Source: a bacterium (GTDB lineage: Bacteria > Electryoneota > JAOADG01). From it: DNA of 64,000 bases. The notes beneath the pieces are model-generated. The model was not told where the DNA came from and ran no database searches. It saw nothing but the letters and a program-made list of their open reading frames with translations. Both the position numbers and the translations under genes were made by a program. This document shows positions 20,272-62,082 of this stretch, piece by piece (the first letter of the stretch is position 1; each line of letters begins with the position of its first letter). Location: the NCBI GenBank assembly GCA_963681965.1, contig OY820579.1:3040001-3104000 (forward strand). Reading direction: 5' to 3'.

Positions 20272-20293
20272 GTAGGGGCGAATCGCATTCGCC
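20272..20293 (+). repeat. GTAG-type REP palindrome (GTAGGGGCGAATCGCATTCGCC)
   Basis: Same sequence at 48903 and inverted at 21069..21091. Confidence 0.85.
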
Positions 20294-20390
20294 TTCATAA
20301 AAGATCAAGATTCAAGATAAAGAATAGATCGCCACACTACGCTTCGCTTCGTTCGCGACGACATATAACGAAACTAAGAAGGACCAAGCA

Positions 20391-21005
20391 CTACTCCCCA
20401 ACAACCGCGACAACCCGACAGGGTGATCCATCCAATTGATCGTAATTCAACGGTAAAGCAAACATAGTGAATTTCCGCGAGGGTAGTAAATCCAGATTCA
20501 CTAAGTGCTCAAGAATTAAGATATCATGTTGAAATAATGCTTTGTGTACTAAATAGGGTAATTGATCCGGAGATGGAGAGTCGATTCCGATCATTTTAAT
20601 TTTCTTCGCGACCAATTTCTCAACCAGTGGTAACCCGATTACCGGGATACTGTCGAAATAATCTTCGGTTCCAACACGTTTGGTGTGATCGGTACGAAAA
20701 ATTGCAAAATCGCCCGCTTCCAATTCATCGACATTCGCATCAATGATCTTCTGACCGCGAACATCGAATAAAATCGCTCGTCCGATAAATTGATCGATCG
20801 AATATTCGGACAGTTTTTTCCCATCCTCCCGAAAATGCCATGGCGCATCGATGTGCGTTCCGAAGTGCGTACTGGTTCTTACTTCATGTTCGTTCCAACC
20901 CTCGACATCGCAACGTGCAACCCGCTTGAATTCCGGCTGTGCCGTTCCGGGGTAAATCGGGGTCACTTCATTCAAAGTCATCGAGAGATCGATATACATC
21001 ATCAC
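20391..21005 (-). CDS. Cyclase family protein (kynurenine formamidase KynB-like)
   Basis: HFGTHIDAPWH, GIDSPSPD, ILEHLVNL, DGSPCRVVA. Confidence 0.9.
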   Translation of the reverse strand: MMMYIDLSMTLNEVTPIYPGTAQPEFKRVARCDVEGWNEHEVRTSTHFGTHIDAPWHFREDGKKLSEYSIDQFIGRAILFDVRGQKIIDANVDELEAGDFAIFRTDHTKRVGTEDYFDSIPVIGLPLVEKLVAKKIKMIGIDSPSPDQLPYLVHKALFQHDILILEHLVNLDLLPSRKFTMFALPLNYDQLDGSPCRVVAVVGE

Positions 21006-21068
21006 AATATCCTATCCTGAATTATTTCATCCACGTAAAAAATATACTGTCAGGTTTCACCCGACTGA

Positions 21069-21091
21069 GGGCGAATGCGATTCGCCCCTAC
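21069..21091 (-). repeat. GTAG-type REP palindrome, inverted copy
   Basis: Reverse complement is GTAGGGGCGAATCGCATTCGCCC. Confidence 0.85.
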
Positions 21092-48971: not shown

Positions 48972-51380
48972 CTACTTCACCATCACGACTTTCTTCGTTG
49001 CAACAAATCCCGGCGCTTTCATCGAGATAAAGTAGATGCCCGATGAATTACGGTCAGCATGCCAGATGATCTCGTGACGACCTGCATTAAGTTGGCCATC
49101 ATGAAGTGTAGAAACAATTCTTCCCAACACATCGGAAACAATGATCGTTACTTGATCCTTTTTCGGAACATCGAAACGAATGTGCAGTGTCGAGTTGAAA
49201 GGATTCGGATAAGGAATCGAAAGCTTGAAATCGTTGGGAAGCGGATTACCGATGAGTGGTTCCACAGCAGTATCGTAGTGAGGAATGTGGTAGGTGCTGA
49301 TGGCATCATTGCCGAACAGTACAACTGTATTGTGGTATATAATCGGGTTGGCTTGCTTCATGATCCTGCCACGATACACTAATCCACTTGGTGTTATCTG
49401 GTAAACCAGCTTAAAACCATACCAATAATTATGCAAATCGACGAGAAGGATATTCCCGTCCAGGTCGATGTTTATTTCGGTATTGTACTGCTGGAATAGG
49501 GTATCGAGGGAACAATAGAGATAAGGCATACCAGTTTGCGGTAATACATAAATCCCCCGACCGTAAACAAATAGAGTGTCAAAATTCGTAGAAGATAGTA
49601 GCCCTGGACTCGCAATCGGAACGGAAAAACCAGTTTGTTGAACCCAACCAGTACCAGTCAAGCGAAACCACTTAGCTGTCGCTGGAGAAGAAGAAGTTGC
49701 AAAAACAGCATTGGAATCGCGTATCGCAAGAATGTTGTAAACCTGATTTACATTTATGGTCGTTTCCAAACGCGCACTATCAGAATCGATTCGGTAAAAA
49801 TATAAGTATGCACTTGTTCTAGGAGGAGGGGAAGCATTCAATACGAAATGTCTATTAGAGAAATACGTGATATGGAAATAGTCCGCACAATTGGCTGAAT
49901 ATGAAAGTAATGTATCAATAATTACTGTTCCATTGGTAAATCTTGCACGAAGAACTTTCTTATCTGCCGTTGTCCCTAACAATGTTGTATCATACAGTTT
50001 ACTGTCAACTACATCCAAATTCGTAACATCATTTGGTAGTATTCCTAAGATTTGATGATTGGTTCCGTTTGTATCGATTTCGAAAACACCCCAATTACCT
50101 CCTTGTAGTGATGTGCGTACTCCTCCCATCGAACCAAGTATTCGATTTCGCCACCGCATTACGCTATACGATCCATTCGTTACCGCCACCTTCGGAACAT
50201 TCGTCTGCGTTCGATAGAACCAAGCAGTGTCGATCACCGTTTGGTCGTCGATGCAGAATAAATGTGGATTTAACCCGTAACCGGTGGGGTATTCATGGGC
50301 GATTGCTCCAATGATACTTGTTTGCGTTCGTGTGACTAGTGCTGGAGGCGGAGGAGTAAACCCGCGATCCCAAGTTTGTGGTTCGAATTGATAGAACGGT
50401 ATTGAATCGAAGGGAACCGGATATCGAACACTTTGTGCCAGCGAGAAGCGCATATATTGCACATTCAATGCACCAGATGATCCGTTTGCATTTCTCGCAG
50501 TCATGCCATCGATATACTGTCGATCCGTTTGTGGCATGAGCCATTTGATGTTGTAAGGAAAAGTGATAGAATCAAGGACGGAAGGGGTTAACGAATCGTT
50601 CAGCGTCCATACAATCCATTGGTGATTATTACCAACAGTTACGAGTGTATCATTGACAAATGCCGGTACGCCGGGTAATACCGGTACTTGCACCCGACGA
50701 ACGGAAGGAGGGTGCTGCGACAAGTCGAGGATTACAAATGTCGAATCGGTACTATCGGCGCCAAACGCGATGTTGTTGCGAACTGCCCAATCGGAAACCG
50801 TCGGAACACTTAAATAATCCTGCCATTGATCGTTACTGTCGCGAATGAAGATTCGATTCAAATGAAATAAGTAATCGCCATACCGTACCGGTCGTAATGG
50901 ATAACGAAACACATCGTACATCGCCACATCTGGTTGCTGAAAGAAATTCTCATTCCCGCAGAGCGTTGTATCTATCTGAAATTGAGTCCCGTTCGGTACG
51001 GGACCGAGATAGGTTGGTGAGTTAATCCCATCCCATTGTATCCATGGGTTGGGACGAGTAAATGTTAATTTATCGCCATAACGGAACAGGTACGGAACGC
51101 CGGCATGATGGTAGTAGGGTAAAGCAAGCGACGTTAGTTGACGAAAACTATCCGGTGCCACTTCCTGCAAGGCGACAAACCCGTAATCGGTGAGACAGAA
51201 CAGCGTATCGCCATTAGCGGTAAGCGAATTCAAATGGTAGTTTGGATAGCTGTCTCCAATCCACTCGAAATCATCGCCCCAGCGCGGAGTAGCAAGCGCT
51301 ACTCCGACCAGAAGCAACCAAAAGATGATTGTCACACTGCGCATCGGGATCTCGATTTGCACTTTGTAATATCTATTCAA
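48972..51380 (-). CDS. Secreted beta-rich protein of unknown function with T9SS-type C-terminal domain
   Basis: Signal peptide (start probably MRSVTII); PYPNPFN...SSGIYF...KKVVMVK tail. Confidence 0.75.
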   Translation of the reverse strand: MNRYYKVQIEIPMRSVTIIFWLLLVGVALATPRWGDDFEWIGDSYPNYHLNSLTANGDTLFCLTDYGFVALQEVAPDSFRQLTSLALPYYHHAGVPYLFRYGDKLTFTRPNPWIQWDGINSPTYLGPVPNGTQFQIDTTLCGNENFFQQPDVAMYDVFRYPLRPVRYGDYLFHLNRIFIRDSNDQWQDYLSVPTVSDWAVRNNIAFGADSTDSTFVILDLSQHPPSVRRVQVPVLPGVPAFVNDTLVTVGNNHQWIVWTLNDSLTPSVLDSITFPYNIKWLMPQTDRQYIDGMTARNANGSSGALNVQYMRFSLAQSVRYPVPFDSIPFYQFEPQTWDRGFTPPPPALVTRTQTSIIGAIAHEYPTGYGLNPHLFCIDDQTVIDTAWFYRTQTNVPKVAVTNGSYSVMRWRNRILGSMGGVRTSLQGGNWGVFEIDTNGTNHQILGILPNDVTNLDVVDSKLYDTTLLGTTADKKVLRARFTNGTVIIDTLLSYSANCADYFHITYFSNRHFVLNASPPPRTSAYLYFYRIDSDSARLETTINVNQVYNILAIRDSNAVFATSSSPATAKWFRLTGTGWVQQTGFSVPIASPGLLSSTNFDTLFVYGRGIYVLPQTGMPYLYCSLDTLFQQYNTEINIDLDGNILLVDLHNYWYGFKLVYQITPSGLVYRGRIMKQANPIIYHNTVVLFGNDAISTYHIPHYDTAVEPLIGNPLPNDFKLSIPYPNPFNSTLHIRFDVPKKDQVTIIVSDVLGRIVSTLHDGQLNAGRHEIIWHADRNSSGIYFISMKAPGFVATKKVVMVK

Positions 51381-54639: not shown

Positions 54640-55482
54640 TTAGCCGACGAGCTGAGCGACTTGCTGTGGCGTCTGATTGGCTTGCGATAGCATCGAGATG
54701 CCAGTCTGCATCAAGATTTGAGCGCGAACGAAATTCGACATTTCCACTGCGATATCGGCATCGCGAATTTGCGACTCGGAAGCAGTTGCATTTTCGTGAG
54801 CGATTTGAATATTTGTGATCGAATTCTGAAGACGACTGACATAGGCACCCAATCGTGTACGTTCGGAATCTTTGGATTGGATTGCGACATCCAACGTATC
54901 GATTGCTGCTTGGCTAGCGACGGTGTCGGTAACACTCAGTGCACCGATTCCGAGCGCCTGTGAAGTCATGCTGTTGATGGAAACATAATAATAATCTTGA
55001 TTCTGGATATTGTTCGTTCCGATGTGGAATTTGATACCATTGGAACCGGATCCGGAGTATGTACCATTCAATAAGTAGAGACCATTGTAATTGGTAACAC
55101 TGGCGATACGCGTAATTTCACTCTTTAATTGTTGGAACTCAACATCGAGTGCACCACGGTCGTTTCCAGTCAGCGAGCCATTGGAAGCTTGTACTGCAAT
55201 GGAGCGTAGTCGAATTAATTTTTCATCGATCACCGACATCGAGCCTTCGGCAGTAGACAGGAGGTTGATATTGTACTCCATGTTCCGTTCGGCTTCAGTC
55301 ATTGAATCGATTTGAGCGCGGAAACGTTCCGACACGGCTAAACCGGCGGGATCGTCCCACGAATTGTTAATACGGAGTCCACTTGATAGACGATTGATCG
55401 CCGTATCGAGAGATTTCTGGGTTGCGTAAATATTACGTTGTCCTGTTATCGACAGGATATTGTGATTGATTCGGGTAGACAT
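54640..55482 (-). CDS. fliC: Flagellin (short form, 280 aa)
   Basis: RINHN, RLSSGLRIN..DD.AGL, R..LGA...RL, ESQIRDAD.A.EM, ML.QAN. Confidence 0.93.
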   Translation of the reverse strand: MSTRINHNILSITGQRNIYATQKSLDTAINRLSSGLRINNSWDDPAGLAVSERFRAQIDSMTEAERNMEYNINLLSTAEGSMSVIDEKLIRLRSIAVQASNGSLTGNDRGALDVEFQQLKSEITRIASVTNYNGLYLLNGTYSGSGSNGIKFHIGTNNIQNQDYYYVSINSMTSQALGIGALSVTDTVASQAAIDTLDVAIQSKDSERTRLGAYVSRLQNSITNIQIAHENATASESQIRDADIAVEMSNFVRAQILMQTGISMLSQANQTPQQVAQLVG

Positions 55483-55641
55483 TTCCTACTTCCCTCCCCT
55501 GGCTCGGGTAGGCCTGCGCGGTGGCTAGGCCCGGCCCGGATCGGTGTTATGCGAATGCCGCCCGAAGGCGGCGTTTCGACGAATGAATAATAATTGATGA
55601 ACTTCTAGCTCGGCACTTCCACTAGGGATCATCCAGAACCG

Positions 55642-56040
55642 TTAGGGTCCGCCAGTTCGCTCATTGGCTTTCTGGAAGAACTTCCGCAGTAAGTAGTCAG
55701 ACATTGTCTCGGCTAACTTATCCAATCCGGTTTCAGGTTCGGTATGTTCCGGTGCACTTCCGTTTACCACAACATCTTTGACTTTGCCGTACTGAACCTC
55801 GAGCTTCCGTCGGGCTCCTTCCAGGGTAAACCCTTCCTCATGCACCAGGCGACGAATATTTTCGAGCACTTCGACCGTGTGTCGGTCGTAACGCCTTTGG
55901 TTACCTTCCGTTCGAAGGGGACTCAGAAAATCACTGAATTCCTTCTCCCAGAAGCGGATCGTCGGTTTGGGGATCCCGGTTAGTGCGTTGACCTGCCCAA
56001 TGCTATAAATCTGATCGGGAGGACCAGCGAACTGAACCAT
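55642..56040 (-). CDS. MerR family HTH regulator
   Basis: YSIGQV, TIRFWEKEF, GNQRRY, EGFTLEGAR. Confidence 0.9.
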   Translation of the reverse strand: MVQFAGPPDQIYSIGQVNALTGIPKPTIRFWEKEFSDFLSPLRTEGNQRRYDRHTVEVLENIRRLVHEEGFTLEGARRKLEVQYGKVKDVVVNGSAPEHTEPETGLDKLAETMSDYLLRKFFQKANERTGGP

Positions 56041-56082
56041 GATTTCCTCACTTCCTGGTATCGGTTCCGCTCTCCAGCACTT

Positions 56083-56109
56083 CTATCGTTTATTTATGGA
56101 AAAGCTTTA
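56083..56109 (-). promoter_or_regulatory. Sigma28-like promoter of merR-flagellin
   Basis: TAAA-N15-AACGATAG (consensus TAAA-N15-GCCGATAA). Confidence 0.5.
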
Positions 56110-56276
56110 ACGATTTTCTTTTGAACTCACAGAAACTTAAAGTGTTAGTAGAAGTGTCTACCCGAATTCTTCTTCATCTTACACTTTAATTATTCTTGAC
56201 GGCTTGCATGAAAATCGTACAGTCTACACAGATCCAGTCAGCTCCGCGCAGAGTGACTGGATTGAAAGTGTTCGAC

Positions 56277-57119
56277 TTACCCGATCAGCTGTGCTACAAC
56301 TTGCGGCAACTGGTTTGCCTGACCCAACATCGCCATTCCGGACTGATACTTCATCTGATTGCGCAGGAAGTTCGACATTTCCGCTGCGATATCGGCATCG
56401 CGAATCTGCGATTCGGCATTGGAAGCGTTCACTTGCTGCGTCTGAAGATCCAGGATTGTGTTCTGGAGCCGGTTGACGTAAGATCCTAAGCGAGTCCGTT
56501 CGGAGTCTTTCGATTCGATCGCGGTATCGAGTTCGGAAATACATGCTTGGCTGTTTACGGTATTCAACACATCCATGTCGGCGATCTTTAACGCATCGGC
56601 GGTCAAATTCGACATACTGACATAATAGTAGTCGATGCCAAACGTATTGTTGGTGCCGATATGCAGCTTGATACCATGCGATCCGGTACCGGAGAATGCG
56701 CCATTCAATAGATGCAGACCGTTGTAATTGGTGATGTTCGCGATCCGGTTGATTTCTGACTTCAACTGTTGGAACTCAAAGTTGATTGCGATACGATCCG
56801 AATCGGTGAGTGCACCATTCGATGCATCTACAGACAATGCGCGCATCTTGATCAGTTTTTCGTCGATAATCGACATCGAACCTTCTGCCGTGGCGAACAT
56901 GTTGATCGAGATATTCGCATTCTTTTCAGCTTCCGCCATCGAAGAGATTTGTGCTCGAAGTTTCTCGGACATTGCCAAACCGGGTGCATCGTCCCACGAA
57001 TAGTTGATGCGAATGCCGCTGGAAAGTCGTTCAACAGCAGTTTCCAATGACTTCTGGGTATCGTAAATATTCTTCTGTGCGGTCAGCGAAAGAATATTGT
57101 GATTAATTCTGGTACTCAT
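56277..57119 (-). CDS. fliC: Flagellin (short form, 280 aa), second paralog
   Basis: Same N- and C-terminal flagellin motifs; colinear with 54640..55482. Confidence 0.93.
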   Translation of the reverse strand: MSTRINHNILSLTAQKNIYDTQKSLETAVERLSSGIRINYSWDDAPGLAMSEKLRAQISSMAEAEKNANISINMFATAEGSMSIIDEKLIKMRALSVDASNGALTDSDRIAINFEFQQLKSEINRIANITNYNGLHLLNGAFSGTGSHGIKLHIGTNNTFGIDYYYVSMSNLTADALKIADMDVLNTVNSQACISELDTAIESKDSERTRLGSYVNRLQNTILDLQTQQVNASNAESQIRDADIAAEMSNFLRNQMKYQSGMAMLGQANQLPQVVAQLIG

Positions 57120-58991: not shown

Positions 58992-61595
58992 ATGCGACTG
59001 TGTGCTGTTCGACGATGGCTGGTAGGGCTGTTCTTTATTAGCCTGATTGGCTCGACCTTCGCAGTCTCGGTACAATCCTCGCGATTGCCGCACCCGTTTC
59101 AGTTTACCGAGAACAAAGGGCAGTGGGATTCAGCGGTCGTATACAAGTGCGAGGTGCGCCGCGACGGCTTCACGTGGTTCCTTGAGCGCGATGGCGTCAC
59201 CCTTGTCACCTCCGTAATCGATTCATCTTCTTTGGTAGGGGCGGTTCGCGAACCGCCCGTGTCCGTTAATGATTCACGATTTGATCCCAATGGTCGTATC
59301 CCACATCCTCGGTTAAAATCTCACGCGCTCAAATTCAAATTCGTGCAACCATCCGGGGACACGGGCGGTTCGCGAACCGCCCCTACCATGAATAAATACG
59401 CCTCCGCGAAATGGATTGATGCACAAGGTGAACTATCCTGGCACAACAATTATTTCTTGGGGAATGATTCTACGAAGTGGGCACCGGATTGCCGCAATTT
59501 CTCTCGCGTGGTGTATCATGACGTGTGGCAAGGAATCGATGTCGAATGGTATGAGAGCAAAGGTCATCTCGAATTCGATTTTGTGGTACATCCCGGTGCC
59601 GATCCCAAGCAAATCAAGCTGGTGTGTGAGGGGTTGGAAGCGCCAATCGCAGGCGGAGGACGGACACTCTTGTCCGTCGACTCAGATATTTCTGTCACAA
59701 AAGGGAGTCGGACAGGAGTGTCCGACCTCCACTTATCGAATGAACTTTCGCTTCCCACCTCCCTCGGTGAATTGCGGATGTCGATTCCGGGCGCATACCA
59801 AACCACCGCGAATGGCACTCATGGAAACACTGTCACGGCACAATTCAGACTCGTTTCAGAAAATCTCTTCGCCATCGCTTTGCCGAACGGGTACGATAAC
59901 TCGCAGACGCTCCGAATCGATCCGCTGGTGTATAGTACGTATTTGGGAGGTGGTGGAAACGATTATGGCGATGGCATCGTCGATGACGGAAGTGGGGGAG
60001 TCATCGTTTGTGGTTGCACAAACAGCTTCGATTTTCCAGTCACTGCCGGAGCCATCGATGTTAGCTACAATGGTGCATCGGTTGGTACTGGCGACTGTTT
60101 CGTCACAAGAGTGGATAGTACTTTTTCACAACTGATTTATAGTACTTTTCTCGGTGGACCGGGTGACGATCGCGCGGAAAGTATTGTCAGTGATTCTTTG
60201 GGTAATTGCACGATCACCGGGTATGCCGATACTCTGTTTCCGACCACTAGTGGTTCATTTGACAGACTATTCAATGGCTCAGAGTGGGATTGTTTTGTAG
60301 CTCGATTAAATAGCTCTGGCTCGAGATTGATATATAGTACTTATCTGGGCGGTTCATCTTGGGATCGAGGTCATTCGATTATCAATGATGATAGTGGTGG
60401 TGTTTTTATCGGTGGAAAATCTTGGAGCGACAATTTTCCGACCACTGAAGGCGCATACAACACGACCAATTCTGGTGGATTTGTCGCTCATTTAAACAAT
60501 ACCGGTTCTGGTCTGATCTATAGCACCTTTCTCGGGCGCGGTCCAGAATTATGGTCGATTACATCAGATGGGTCGGGGGGAATATTCGCAACTGGACATA
60601 CATTAACTGGATTATATACAACCCCCAATGCGTTCGATACGACTTATAATGGCGGTGAAACCGATGCATTTGTACTACGCTTGAATTCGACCGGCTCGCA
60701 GTTGCTGTACAGTACTTATCTCGGTGGTTCCGGCGACCGTGAATGGGCAGTTGGGATTACAGGTGATGGAAACGGTAACTGTTTTGTAACAGGTTCTACT
60801 ACCAGTCCCAATTTTCCAATTACAGTCGGTGGGTTTGATACAGTCTATAACGGAGGCACCACAGTTATCGGTGATTGTTTTATTTCATATCTCAACAGCA
60901 CTGGATCGAATCTTTTATACAGTACTTATCTCGGTGGTTCTGGTGAGGATGCAGGTAGGGGAATCCTGTACTATGCTGATACTAGTGTTACCATTGTGGG
61001 GGGAACAAAGGGTACTGACTTTCCAACTACAATAGGCGCTTATTCAGAACACCTTAACGGTACAGGAAACTGTTTTGTAACTCATCTTAAAGTCAATACA
61101 TCTCGATTAATTTACAGCACGTATTTTGGTGGGACAGGCAGCGATGTCGCTTATGCATGTATGAAACACCATTCTGATGGAATCATTTTTACTGGTATTT
61201 GTGGACCTGGTTTTCCCACGACCCCGGAGGTCGGTGACACGAGTTTCAACGGGGTTACTGATGGCTTCATTGCGCGTTTGACACTTATTCCGGACTCATC
61301 AGCCAGTACACCGGAACGATTCATACAACCATCCGGTTTCGCTTTGGCGCAGAATTACCCGAATCCGTTCAACTCCACCGCCACTCTTTCCTACACAATC
61401 CCAATCACTTCTCATGTCGATCTCCGTCTTTACGACATTACCGGTCGCGAAGTATCGACGCTGGTGCAGCGCGAACAAATTGCCGGAACCTATCGTGTGT
61501 TGCTCGATGGTTCGCGCTTGGCGAGTGGAACCTATTTCGTGCGATTGCAGGCGGGTGCGTTTTCGAAGACCCAGAAGATCGTGCTGTTGAAGTAG
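58992..61595 (+). CDS. Secreted SBBP (beta-propeller repeat) protein with T9SS-type C-terminal domain
   Basis: Signal peptide; FTENKGQW, NYFLGND..KW, IDPLVYSTYLGG, repeated L.YST(Y/F)LGG/FPTT.GA(F/Y)D; QNYPNPFN...SGTYF...K. Confidence 0.9.
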   Translation: MRLCAVRRWLVGLFFISLIGSTFAVSVQSSRLPHPFQFTENKGQWDSAVVYKCEVRRDGFTWFLERDGVTLVTSVIDSSSLVGAVREPPVSVNDSRFDPNGRIPHPRLKSHALKFKFVQPSGDTGGSRTAPTMNKYASAKWIDAQGELSWHNNYFLGNDSTKWAPDCRNFSRVVYHDVWQGIDVEWYESKGHLEFDFVVHPGADPKQIKLVCEGLEAPIAGGGRTLLSVDSDISVTKGSRTGVSDLHLSNELSLPTSLGELRMSIPGAYQTTANGTHGNTVTAQFRLVSENLFAIALPNGYDNSQTLRIDPLVYSTYLGGGGNDYGDGIVDDGSGGVIVCGCTNSFDFPVTAGAIDVSYNGASVGTGDCFVTRVDSTFSQLIYSTFLGGPGDDRAESIVSDSLGNCTITGYADTLFPTTSGSFDRLFNGSEWDCFVARLNSSGSRLIYSTYLGGSSWDRGHSIINDDSGGVFIGGKSWSDNFPTTEGAYNTTNSGGFVAHLNNTGSGLIYSTFLGRGPELWSITSDGSGGIFATGHTLTGLYTTPNAFDTTYNGGETDAFVLRLNSTGSQLLYSTYLGGSGDREWAVGITGDGNGNCFVTGSTTSPNFPITVGGFDTVYNGGTTVIGDCFISYLNSTGSNLLYSTYLGGSGEDAGRGILYYADTSVTIVGGTKGTDFPTTIGAYSEHLNGTGNCFVTHLKVNTSRLIYSTYFGGTGSDVAYACMKHHSDGIIFTGICGPGFPTTPEVGDTSFNGVTDGFIARLTLIPDSSASTPERFIQPSGFALAQNYPNPFNSTATLSYTIPITSHVDLRLYDITGREVSTLVQREQIAGTYRVLLDGSRLASGTYFVRLQAGAFSKTQKIVLLK
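59233..59388. repeat. Intragenic inverted REP pair (32-bp perfect inverted repeat, 92-bp spacer)
   Basis: TGGTAGGGGCGGTTCGCGAACCGCCCGTGTCC at 59233..59264 and its exact reverse complement at 59357..59388. Confidence 0.9.
59653..59732. repeat. Second intragenic inverted REP pair (GTGG-type)
   Basis: GCGGAGGACGGACACTCTTGTCCGTC vs reverse complement GTGGAGGTCGGACACTCCTGTCCGAC (22/26). Confidence 0.8.
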
Positions 61596-61853
61596 GGGCG
61601 ACCCACTGCGGTCGCATACCTTTTTTTCTGTAGGAGCGGATCCCCTCATCCGCCGCAAGCGGCAACGTCGTTGCCGCCGTAGGGGCGTATAACAAAGACA
61701 AAATCAGGATACAAGATACAAGATACCTGAAGATTGCTTCGTCACTTCGCTACGGCTATCCGCCTACGGCGGATGATCCTTCGCTGCATTCCTCGCAACG
61801 ACAAATCAAGATACATGATTCAAAATGTGGGCGACCGCAGTGGGTCGCCCTAC
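61592..61853. repeat. Mosaic REP/RPE-like cluster bounded by an inverted REP pair
   Basis: GTAGGGGCGACCCACTGCGGTCGC (61592) and inverted copy (61829..61853) enclose other GTAG units, GATACAA tandems and GATTGCTTCGTC...TTCCTCGCAACGAC. Confidence 0.85.
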
Positions 61854-62082
61854 TACAAATTAGAAGAAATGGTCAGAACAAGTTCTGACCTACGGAAAAG
61901 AAGAATTACGCCCAATCGGAGTTGGGCAGTACTGCAAGAAAAGATTCAACAACTCTGGCTCGGAGACCTGCACTCCCCAATCGTCTCCGCAATTGAATTC
62001 GATTGTCCCGTTATGTACATTGCTTGATACCCGCGCAAATTCGCATTGATCTCTATTGCCAATGAAAATTGTAGGAGTTTCT

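Follow-up and report, generated by a model that had tools for sequence, protein, structure and literature searches.

An intact gene in the window (the whole 64,000-nt stretch of DNA analysed) carries REP units in frame, and in this gene and its close paralogs REPs occupy three predicted loops of a single domain, DUF7948. We consider it probable that these tolerant loops act as a self-reinforcing sink for REPs, trading DNA with intergenic clusters and, by putative gene conversion, with ~25 sister genes. The gene product consists of a signal-like N-terminus, DUF7948, SBBP beta-propeller repeats, and a T9SS-type C-terminal sorting domain, in that order. See Table 1 for all coordinates.

Table 1. 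Features of the REP-bearing gene and its 3' flank (positions in the window)
Feature	Position	Strand	Description
Intact 867-aa gene	58992..61595	+	Open 867-codon ORF; one of 25 close paralogous loci
DUF7948 (PF25778)	59088..59924	+	Domain, predicted all-beta
Loop 1	59220..59315	+	Variable, REP-filled; 96 nt here, 72-243 nt among paralogs
Pair-1 left arm	59233..59264	+	GTAG-headed REP in loop 1; reads LVGAVREPPVS
Strand between loops 1 and 2	59316..59342	+	Conserved ancestral beta-strand KSHALKFKF
Loop 2	59343..59405	+	63 nt here, 30-384 nt among paralogs; 10-12 aa in 62 distant homologs
Pair-1 right arm	59357..59388	-	Same REP as left arm, in loop 2; GTAG head on minus strand, DTGGSRTAPT on gene strand
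Loop 3	59637..59744	+	108 nt here, 33 nt in REP-free paralog; 7-9 aa in 69 distant homologs
Pair-2 left arm	59655..59676	+	Reads GGRTLLSV
Pair-2 right arm	59709..59732	-	GTGG head on minus strand, RTGVSDLH on gene strand
SBBP propeller region	59925..61355	+	Without REP units; boundaries approximate
Por_Secre_tail / TIGR04183	61356..61583	+	Sorting domain, aa 789-864
Intergenic REP cluster	61596..61930	.	Directly 3' of stop codon; 7 units, 6 seed types

A preliminary description of this DNA reported two inverted REP pairs in the gene. The arms, the reading frame, and the folding all confirm that both are genuine GTAG/GTGG-type REPs, in frame in an intact ORF, and that pair 1 is a perfect inverted repeat, with 32-nt arms (100% complementary) around a 92-nt spacer. 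The pair-2 arms are 22 nt long, 91% complementary, and 32 nt apart, with the right one pairing over 59709-59730. Read in order, the four arms give LVGAVREPPVS, GDTGGSRTAPTM, GGRTLLSV, and RTGVSDLH. Both pair-1 arms have a GTAG head, while pair 2 has GTGG on the right and a degenerate GCGG on the left. Pair 1 folds with a z-score of -11.0 and pair 2 with -6.7, and 0/200 shuffles fold equally well. Pair 1 is high in copy number and mostly extragenic, as is typical of a GTAG-type REP: its 24-nt core has 72 exact copies genome-wide, and 86 copies of the REP lie outside the DUF7948 family vs 15 inside. The pair-2 REP is exceptional in this genome, with 34 of its 35 copies within the family and no intergenic pool; it is a repeat in 7 of 40 relatives.

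The two pairs also differ in how they were gained. Pair 2 behaves as a REPIN, an inverted doublet with a short spacer and both arms in one loop, gained as a unit: 17 paralogs have the 108-nt allele vs a 33-nt empty allele. Pair 1 had been taken for a single inserted element, which we rejected because its spacer holds the ancestral strand, with the arms in the two loops on either side, and because the arms assort separately: of 24 paralogs, 2 have both, 4 have the loop-1 arm alone, and 1 has the loop-2 arm alone. A two-sided stem difference in pair 2, first described as a compensatory change, is present, but both stem variants occur as repeats in G019, and likewise in G039, of the same phylum. 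It is likely an inherited, standing REP variant, and we did not accept it as proof of selection after insertion.

To compare the loops, those of paralogs were cut out by conserved anchors and those of relatives by HMM anchors. As had been proposed, the REP segments are indels in predicted loops, and the loops of homologs are shorter. The pair-1 palindrome being abundant elsewhere in the genome as well, none of the sequence-based grounds for refutation named in the preliminary description applies. Anchor to anchor, loop 3 spans 28-187 residues, vs 26-29 in nearly all rows for a control loop. Single loops reach >100 aa and mix many REP families. AF2 pLDDT is 45-62 in loop centres vs 85-98 in the flanking core blocks. 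There are 13, 9, and 7 allele classes for loops 1, 2, and 3, respectively, in mosaic combinations, and the loop-3 allele of the 867-aa gene is common to 17 of 24 paralogs. Diversity-generating retroelements combine a reverse transcriptase, a template/variable repeat, and adenine-specific change; here, in contrast, the loops vary by block insertion and replacement. A reading-frame filter is apparent, as loop lengths are multiples of 3 in 70 of 72 paralog loops, and of the GTAGG heads 21 fall in phase 0, 23 in phase 1, and none in phase 2, which would give a stop. When REP-cluster DNA is sampled at random, 30% of 100-nt draws and 7% of 250-nt draws lack a stop. Six of the 25 close loci are broken, four of them in or at a loop.

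By definition REPs are extragenic, and the only intragenic ones known to us are scattered singletons or lie in the RAYT gene itself. In a genome-wide count of the kind the preliminary description had called for, 112 of 1,413 REP units lie inside called genes, spread over 26 genes and almost all in one family: 25 DUF7948 gene models account for 108, and a single RAYT-like gene for the other 4. Among 177 further genes that bear a sorting tail of this kind, none holds a REP. Four RAYT-like genes are present, with NF047646 scores of 94.3, 78.9, 68.8, and 67.7 bits (cut-off 80). Two are flanked by GTAGGGG-type REPs, as in pair 1, and one by a VGINSD-type REP of loop 2; no exact pair-1 or pair-2 REP directly flanks any of the four. 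Of the proposal that RAYT-type REP/REPIN activity inserts peptides into loops, the REP-derived peptides in predicted loops of a secreted family and the presence of RAYT-like genes are supported, but pair 1 as one unit is not.

Next, we looked at DNA shared between loops and intergenic clusters. The loops, including their spacers, have 14-mers in common with intergenic DNA, whereas cores share at most 14 of ~600 nt, and the cluster directly 3' of the stop codon contains module types also present in loops of other paralogs. DNA of the KSHALKFKF strand has three copies in intergenic REP clusters (E 4e-6, 9e-5, and 0.056), vs 0/17 control core windows with an outside match at E<0.05. The presence of this strand, which lies between the pair-1 loops, in three such clusters suggests that REP ends were points at which DNA left these genes. 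One of the copies is chimeric, combining an intergenic REP flank with loop-1 modules, the strand, and the pair-1 REP of loop 2; in runs X1 and X2, single contigs bridge this copy. A six-copy intergenic doublet has a related 89-nt spacer (z 3.8-5.4, 0/500 shuffles, three copies tested). The intergenic strand copies could instead be relics of deleted paralogs, as G001 has a family gene at the site orthologous to one of them. The exported coding strand would be evidence, at the genome level, that REP units capture fragments of genes, a proposal made in the available text of PMC3333891.

The domain itself is uniform, with a mean identity of 92% for DUF7948 core segment C among 19 paralog proteins vs 42-49% for the propeller, and variable core sites more than ~15 nt apart show only background linkage. 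We considered REPs as the cause of this homogenisation and rejected it: G030 and G022 show the same contrast of constant domain and variable propeller with no hairpins in their fetched loops, and beyond 15 nt linkage across loops is no lower than within cores. The paralog core tree is star-like, and no order of events was drawn from it.

We suggest the following course for a REP sink. The alignment shows that the domain tolerates extra residues at three positions, which are predicted to be loops, and a rare first REP that leaves the frame open could become fixed in one of them. By analogy with E. coli TnpAREP biochemistry, a REP-holding site may then be prone to cleavage and strand transfer by a RAYT, or to homologous exchange via its REP, whereby whole modules with their spacers would enter loops and gene pieces would leave. 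Homogenisation of the domain among paralogs, a process to which the observed pattern points, would spread and reshuffle loop alleles, and paralog redundancy would cut the cost of accidents. Only stop-free, frame-keeping arrangements last in intact genes, as the loop lengths and phases above show. The REP-encoded peptides are likely tolerated passengers, not selected epitopes. There is precedent for such a mechanism in the available excerpts of PMC3333891 and PMC6006769. A sink does not fully explain why other linker-bearing secreted proteins lack REPs, or why three separate loops were seeded in several lineages. Also weighing against it are the invariance of the pair-2 stems (see below), the absence of either pair's exact REP directly beside any RAYT-like gene, and the possible relic origin of the intergenic strand copies.

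Alternatively, the host may have co-opted REP/RAYT recombination for selected variation of surface loops on a constant domain, for example for phage or predator evasion or as protease bait. The near-total confinement of REPs to one exported family would fit this, as would the many allele classes in mosaic combinations and the 19 of 25 close loci that are intact despite the mutational cost. Furthermore, the same loops are filled with different REPs in related genera (G001, G003, G014, G026, and G038). However, the propeller, likely the binding part, is already far more variable without any REPs, and the dominance of one loop-3 allele is unlike diversifying selection. Such loops are also missing from most homologs: loop 3 exceeds 20 aa in 2/156 distant proteins, one a parsing artefact of a duplicated domain. 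In a further 69 domains, a single hairpin is present among 3,414 loop residues. Counts by pattern in fragmented relatives, which understate REPs, were excluded. We regard selected surface diversification as unlikely. Its boldest form, a REP/RAYT-powered diversity generator with a constant gene-converting domain, three landing loops, 1,300 intergenic REP units as donor library, and selection of loop combinations, we likewise doubt; if true, it would be the first case of domesticated REPs supplying peptides combinatorially, with DNA moving in both directions between genes and intergenic clusters.

The hairpins might also be kept for a role in nucleic acid, as mRNA structure near the 5' end (pausing or stability) or as a binding site for RAYT or another protein, with the peptide incidental. 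The strong predicted RNA folds of both pairs are consistent with this, and the pair-2 stems are unusually invariant among 17 paralogs: 38 of 40 stem sites do not vary, synonymous sites included (variable sites, 2/40 in stems vs 9/28 in the spacer; at fourfold sites, 2/11 in stems vs 61/69 in the core). This invariance, in a REP with no intergenic pool, may point to selection acting on the hairpin, or to self-repair, and it is the part of the earlier retained-hairpin claim that survives, the compensatory change being likely inherited. Palindrome self-correction or a young allele could, however, yield equal invariance, and the sites are not independent. Hairpin number ranges from 0 to 9 per family gene, and one intact close paralog has empty loops 1 and 3 and only a decayed hairpin in loop 2. 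A nucleic-acid role is in our judgement decidedly improbable.

It had also been suggested that the pair-1 spacer inverts or is excised, which would make pair 1 an ON/OFF switch. The arms are perfect, and either event would stop the frame, inversion at codon 103 and deletion at codon 92. In loop 2 of one paralog, a deletion between two REP cores shifts the frame, and an intergenic unit after yidD is oriented opposite to the family gene at the same site in G001. Against a switch, only 2/24 paralogs have both arms, and neither neighbouring ORF resembles a recombinase, judging the translations by eye. The inverted junction, probed with unique flanks, has 0 matches in the genome assembly, contigs being prone to drop rare variants, and no opposite-strand joint between the arms was seen among 15 of 19 contig joints. 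Mapping onto the gene used run contigs, and paralogs pile up there. Joints skipping 59258-59362 (X4) and 59281-59361 (X1) were not counted as excision, as their sides are 24-27 nt and their inserts unknown. We hold a switch to be very unlikely; what remains of the proposed mobility of this segment is that the REP-bracketed strand has copies in intergenic clusters. As for assembly chimeras, or unexpressed pseudogenes gathering repeats, we give them almost no credence, despite the six broken loci and the fact that no run contig spans the whole 867-aa gene, since core pi is 0.05-0.12 at first and second codon positions vs 0.36-0.42 at fourfold sites, the loops are filtered for frame and phase, and the pattern is repeated in independent genomes.

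We also searched for structural relatives of DUF7948. No sequence relative was found in the PDB (best E 0.4), and Foldseek gave no match at E<=0.001. VIA-align reached a Z score of 9.1 at best (rmsd 5.5, 174 aligned), with many beta-supersandwich domains scoring equally, and an Atlas search returned DUF7948 only.

Our comparisons with published systems draw on the available portions of the papers cited. The preliminary description held that in-frame palindromes are best known from Rickettsia RPEs, but in-frame GTAG REPs, too, are better known than it assumed (PMC3733652, PMC6006769). Di Nocera et al. 2013 (PMC3733652) describe GTAG-headed hairpins wholly inside ORFs and in frame, as here, occurring singly, in dimers (20-30 aa), or in clusters (43-82 aa), with 70 supplement rows for Opitutus terrae, and suggest that intragenic REPs in linkers or loops are neutral. 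Those REPs are scattered over unrelated genes, often for DNA repair or RNA binding, whereas here they are confined to three fixed loops of one paralog family, reach >100 aa per loop, and come from many, shuffled REP families; 'propeller' or 'SBBP' rows are absent from four supplement files of that paper. RPEs are palindromic repeats translated inside apparently functional proteins (via PMC3733652, PMC3184786), and our palindromes resemble them in being in frame, in an intact protein, and in predicted loops. RPE-1 is long (about 105-146 nt) and spread over unrelated genes, while 25 of our 26 REP-holding genes belong to one family, and no RPE-named model is among the NCBIfam matches of 16 family proteins.

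Studies of REPIN/BIME dynamics driven by TnpAREP (PMC3333891, PMC8266576, PMC3337134) describe inverted doublets, mosaic clusters, and REP sites that are cleaved and undergo strand transfer in vitro, and propose integration at REP-carrying targets and gene-fragment capture. These dynamics are known from extragenic space; here the clusters lie inside coding loops under a reading-frame filter. PARCELs (PMC2996958) are likewise palindrome-encoded variable segments in surface proteins, but consist of a single amphipathic tandem repeat of 25 residues whose protein pattern is conserved, unlike the unrelated peptides and many REP families seen here. Our searches of the open-access literature found nothing on REPs in hypervariable loops of secreted paralogs, none naming DUF7948, and nothing relevant on SBBP/T9SS.

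This REP-saturated genome is a clean natural experiment, in which three fixed sites can be followed through ~25 parallel genes, with alleles both filled and empty, some copies broken, and some pieces apparently exported. From sequence, one can ask how REPs reach new sites in vivo, targeting REP-holding sites and carrying flanking DNA with them, and how selfish DNA seeds new protein sequence. The DUF7948 loops are large, naturally validated insertion sites in a secreted domain and, if selected, would be a new route to surface variation.

In subclass 2.4 TnpAREP (RAYT) genes, REPs are inserted in frame, repeatedly at the same peripheral position of the protein (Quentin et al. 2018, PMC6006769, in its available text). 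They match our case in having in-frame REPs at a recurring site of one protein family, with the difference that their host is the transposase itself and ours an unrelated secreted domain with three sites and ~25 copies. The RAYT-like gene at G000:345517-346362, which carries four REPs between its HuH and Y regions, appears to be such a gene, judging by this one feature.

The two inverted REP pairs that the preliminary description placed inside an open gene are both present, and the product of that gene, if expressed, would carry an N-terminal DUF7948 domain, SBBP propeller repeats, and a T9SS-type sorting tail (Pfam, NCBIfam). The genome (4.24 Mb, single contig) contains the pair-1 core 72 times without a mismatch. 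Close homologs of the protein are labelled "bacterium," "Caldithrix," or "candidate division KSB1" in the databases. A tblastn search with core segments, that is, DUF7948 outside its variable loops, found 25 close loci in the genome along with three divergent loci and one weak fragment; 19 of the 25 close loci have a full open frame. An anchored comparison of 73 proteins revealed three variable positions in DUF7948 (loops 1–3) and a nearly constant fourth, control loop. Aligning homologs, as proposed earlier to look for indels, shows that the REP-bearing segments are length-variable stretches, predicted to be loops, that are shorter in distant, mostly Bacteroidota-labelled homologs, where loop 2 has 10–12 aa (n = 62) and loop 3 has 7–9 aa (n = 69). 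The AlphaFold2 model of DUF7948 (mean pLDDT 84, from an 82-row alignment) consists almost wholly of beta structure, with KSHALKFKF as a predicted strand and the three loops as the low-confidence stretches. Many beta-supersandwich domains resemble the predicted fold, and none stands out among them. Repeats other than REPs enter these loops too: four homologs (P0030, P0033, P0047, and P0051) have tandem repeats of 7 residues (KVKGEGL/S, HPTPYTL) in loop 2.

Locations of the REP pairs, the DUF7948 loops, and other features (G000, this genome; G039, another genome of the phylum; C, contig; L, locus)
Feature	Location	Description
Pair 1	window 59233–59264, 59357–59388	32 nt, perfect, spacing 92 nt
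Pair 2	window 59655–59676, 59709–59730	22 nt, 91%
ORF holding both pairs	window 58992–61595	open, 867 codons
REP units	window 20285–21077	two of one family, ~800 nt apart; probably what the preliminary description calls the "REP-bracketed cyclase gene"
802-aa protein	window 48972–51380, minus strand	C-terminal sorting domain of the same type; no DUF7948, no internal REP
Flagellin-like ORFs	window 54640–57119	two of 280 aa, small HTH-type ORF in between (read by eye)
Loop 1		5′ of strand KSHALKFKF (anchored comparison)
Loop 2		3′ of strand KSHALKFKF (anchored comparison)
Loop 3		between CEGL and ELxLxTSLGEL (anchored comparison)
RAYT-like gene, L033:1018–1863	G000:C1:345517–346362	281 aa; NF047646 68.8 bits, below cut-off of 80
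RAYT-like genes, L001 and L002	G000:C1:526700–530100	separated by 3 kb, each with REP families of its own on both sides
Broken locus L035	G000:C1:1543000–1545400	loop 1 split by transposase-like ORF, ~300 aa
Truncated paralog L036	G000:C1:3224500–3226100	ends directly after conserved strand; next ORF has cysteine/histidine-rich repeats, ankyrin-like end (read by eye)
Strand copy	G000 3810395	E = 4e-6
Strand copy, L150:2160–2330	G000 4132755 (C1:4132660–4132830)	E = 9e-5
Strand copy	G000 3356686	E = 0.056
REP-rich gap	G000:C1:3808425–3810781	2.4 kb, 35 REP units in tandemly amplified blocks; ends in copy of family loop 1, strand, loop 2
L120 hairpins	G039:C135:21149–21267	four tandem, pair-2 type, 33-nt period, in frame at 5′ end of long ORF without DUF7948 match

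We scanned the genome for REP units with 41 seeds against our own gene calls (2,995 genes, 85% coding). The intragenic and intergenic count called for in the preliminary description gave 1,413 units, 112 of them within called genes: at least 108 in 25 DUF7948 gene models and four in one gene resembling a REP-associated transposase (RAYT, or TnpAREP). Our caller is crude and placed some family starts inside loops; therefore, the family count is a lower bound. Another 28 units belong to 5′ extensions that precede the start codon chosen for 16 other genes and are likely untranslated. A looser 16-mer scan added only three single matches, and REP units were found in none of the 177 other genes with a PNPFN-type tail. 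The RAYT-like gene, the only non-DUF7948 gene with internal units, has four tandem REPs with an 84-nt period, in frame between its HuH and Y regions, and is flanked by GTAGGGG-type REPs. It scores below the cut-off of the NCBIfam model for such genes, and in its array it is like subclass 2.4 TnpAREP, of which an in-frame REP array between HuH and Y is given as a hallmark (PMC6006769). The genome has four RAYT-like genes, but none of the four is directly flanked by an exact pair-1 or pair-2 REP. In-frame REPs are already on record (PMC3733652, PMC3184786, PMC6006769). Searches of the open literature yielded no precedent for a genome whose intragenic REPs are nearly all confined to fixed loops of one secreted family, combined with shuffled loop alleles and exported coding DNA; the observation itself is real.

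Across 24 parsed loci, we distinguish 13, 9, and 7 allele classes in loops 1, 2, and 3, with lengths of 72–243, 30–384, and 33–222 nt, respectively. Much of the loop DNA, including spacers, has 14-mers in common with intergenic sequence, compared with at most 14 nt of ~600 in the cores. Seventy of the 72 loops are multiples of three. GTAGG heads in the 22 in-frame loci number 21, 23, and 0 in phases 0, 1, and 2, where phase 2 reads TAG, and of random draws from REP-cluster DNA, 30% are free of stops at a length of 100 nt, 7% at 250, and 2% at 350. Together, these patterns show that the reading frame of the loops is filtered. A cost can be seen among the six broken loci. In one, a deletion from one REP core to another within loop 2 shifts the frame; a second has lost 1 nt in loop 2, a third ends where loop 2 starts, and the ORF splitting loop 1 in a fourth (L035) has three close copies in the genome; the remaining two are broken in the core and in the propeller.

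Identity among 19 paralog proteins is 92% in the DUF7948 core, 42–49% in the propeller, and 67% in the tail. Beyond 15 nt, variable core sites show only background linkage, the pattern that frequent short gene conversion would produce. The contrast between domains also holds in two genomes whose fetched loops lack hairpins, G030 (L005, L017, and L026; DUF7948 90–96% vs propeller 42–75%) and G022 (L004 and L016; 87% vs 34%). Therefore, homogenization of DUF7948 does not require REPs. A constant DUF7948 with a divergent propeller is a family-wide design of interest by itself. TnpAREP of E. coli was seen in vitro to cut close to REPs and to join strands that carry them, and the authors of that work proposed integration at REP-carrying targets as well as capture of gene fragments (PMC3333891). 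Taking core homogenization, linkage decay, this biochemistry, and the RAYT-like genes together, the best explanation, which we consider fairly probable, is that DUF7948 loops tolerate inserts and would rarely be seeded by REPs, that RAYT action would drive REP-targeted exchange at seeded loops, that gene conversion would spread loop alleles among paralogs, and that filtering would keep frame-preserving arrangements. That the loops were instead diversified under selection for diversity itself seems unlikely.

The pair-1 arms lie in different loops; both occur in 2 of 24 loci, the loop-1 arm only in four, and the loop-2 arm only in one. The pair-1 loop-2 allele is 63 nt, as long as the commonest allele, whose REP differs, so it is a replacement. 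Inversion or excision at pair 1, as suggested, seems unlikely. Computed inversion would lead to a stop at codon 103 and deletion to one at codon 92, and the inverted junctions have no match in the genome at up to five mismatches. A DNA profile of the strand enclosed by pair 1 finds three intergenic copies, all behind loop-1-type modules, and one weak match inside a gene (E = 3.8). Of 17 control windows taken from other cores, none matches anything outside at E < 0.05. Three reach 0.055–0.065, so the copy at 3356686 leans also on its flank, which is 82% identical over 175 nt to a family locus. The 4132755 copy starts ~35 nt past the yidD stop and combines an intergenic REP flank of the usual kind with loop-1 modules, the strand, and the pair-1 loop-2 REP. 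Single contigs from two sequencing runs (X1 and X2, possibly the assembly's own source) span this unit without differences. The corresponding site in G001, flanked by the same two genes, has a split family gene on the opposite strand, so the unit is either the remnant, inverted or re-imported, of a paralog since lost or a piece that was copied out; under both origins, it consists of gene DNA that was cut and joined at the ends of REPs. Six intergenic pair-1 REP doublets each follow closely on a gene that has the C-terminal tail of the family. Their 89-nt spacer is related to that of the window gene (0/500 shuffles; three doublets tested), through exchange that may have gone in either direction.

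Pair 2 is a loop-3 doublet common to 17 of 24 loci and was gained as one unit. Its compensatory change is present. Other genomes of the phylum have both stem variants as repeats, with the two side by side in the genomes G019 and G039, so the change likely predates insertion. There is no intergenic pool of the pair-2 REP in this genome. Among the 17 loci, 2 of 11 fourfold sites vary in the stems vs 61 of 69 in the flanking cores (Fisher p = 5e-6), and 2 of 40 stem sites vs 9 of 28 spacer sites (p = 0.005), with sites in these tests not independent. This near-invariance is the main loose end and could stem from a recent origin of the allele, from self-repair of the palindrome, or from selection acting on the hairpin.

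DUF7948 occurs in 12 of 41 phylum genomes searched, this one included. In the fetched loci, which are the best-scoring ones and biased towards short loops, hairpins per residue in loops vs the rest of the gene are 10/497 vs 1/3,794 in G001, 8/250 vs 2/1,837 in G014, 3/169 vs 1/2,031 in G026, 2/62 vs 0/677 in G038, and 1/135 vs 2/1,934 in G034; those of G003, G008, G018, G022, G027, and G030 have no loop hairpins. The 69 distant domains have a single hairpin in 3,414 loop residues. Of the 19 copies of a pair-2-type hairpin in G003, 15 were retrieved: seven lie inside loop 1 of DUF7948 genes, one adjoins a family fragment at a contig end, and, among the other seven, none is inside another gene and two are upstream of a later start. 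Since this REP type occupies loop 3 in our genome and loop 1 in G003, its placement points to separate insertions in the two.
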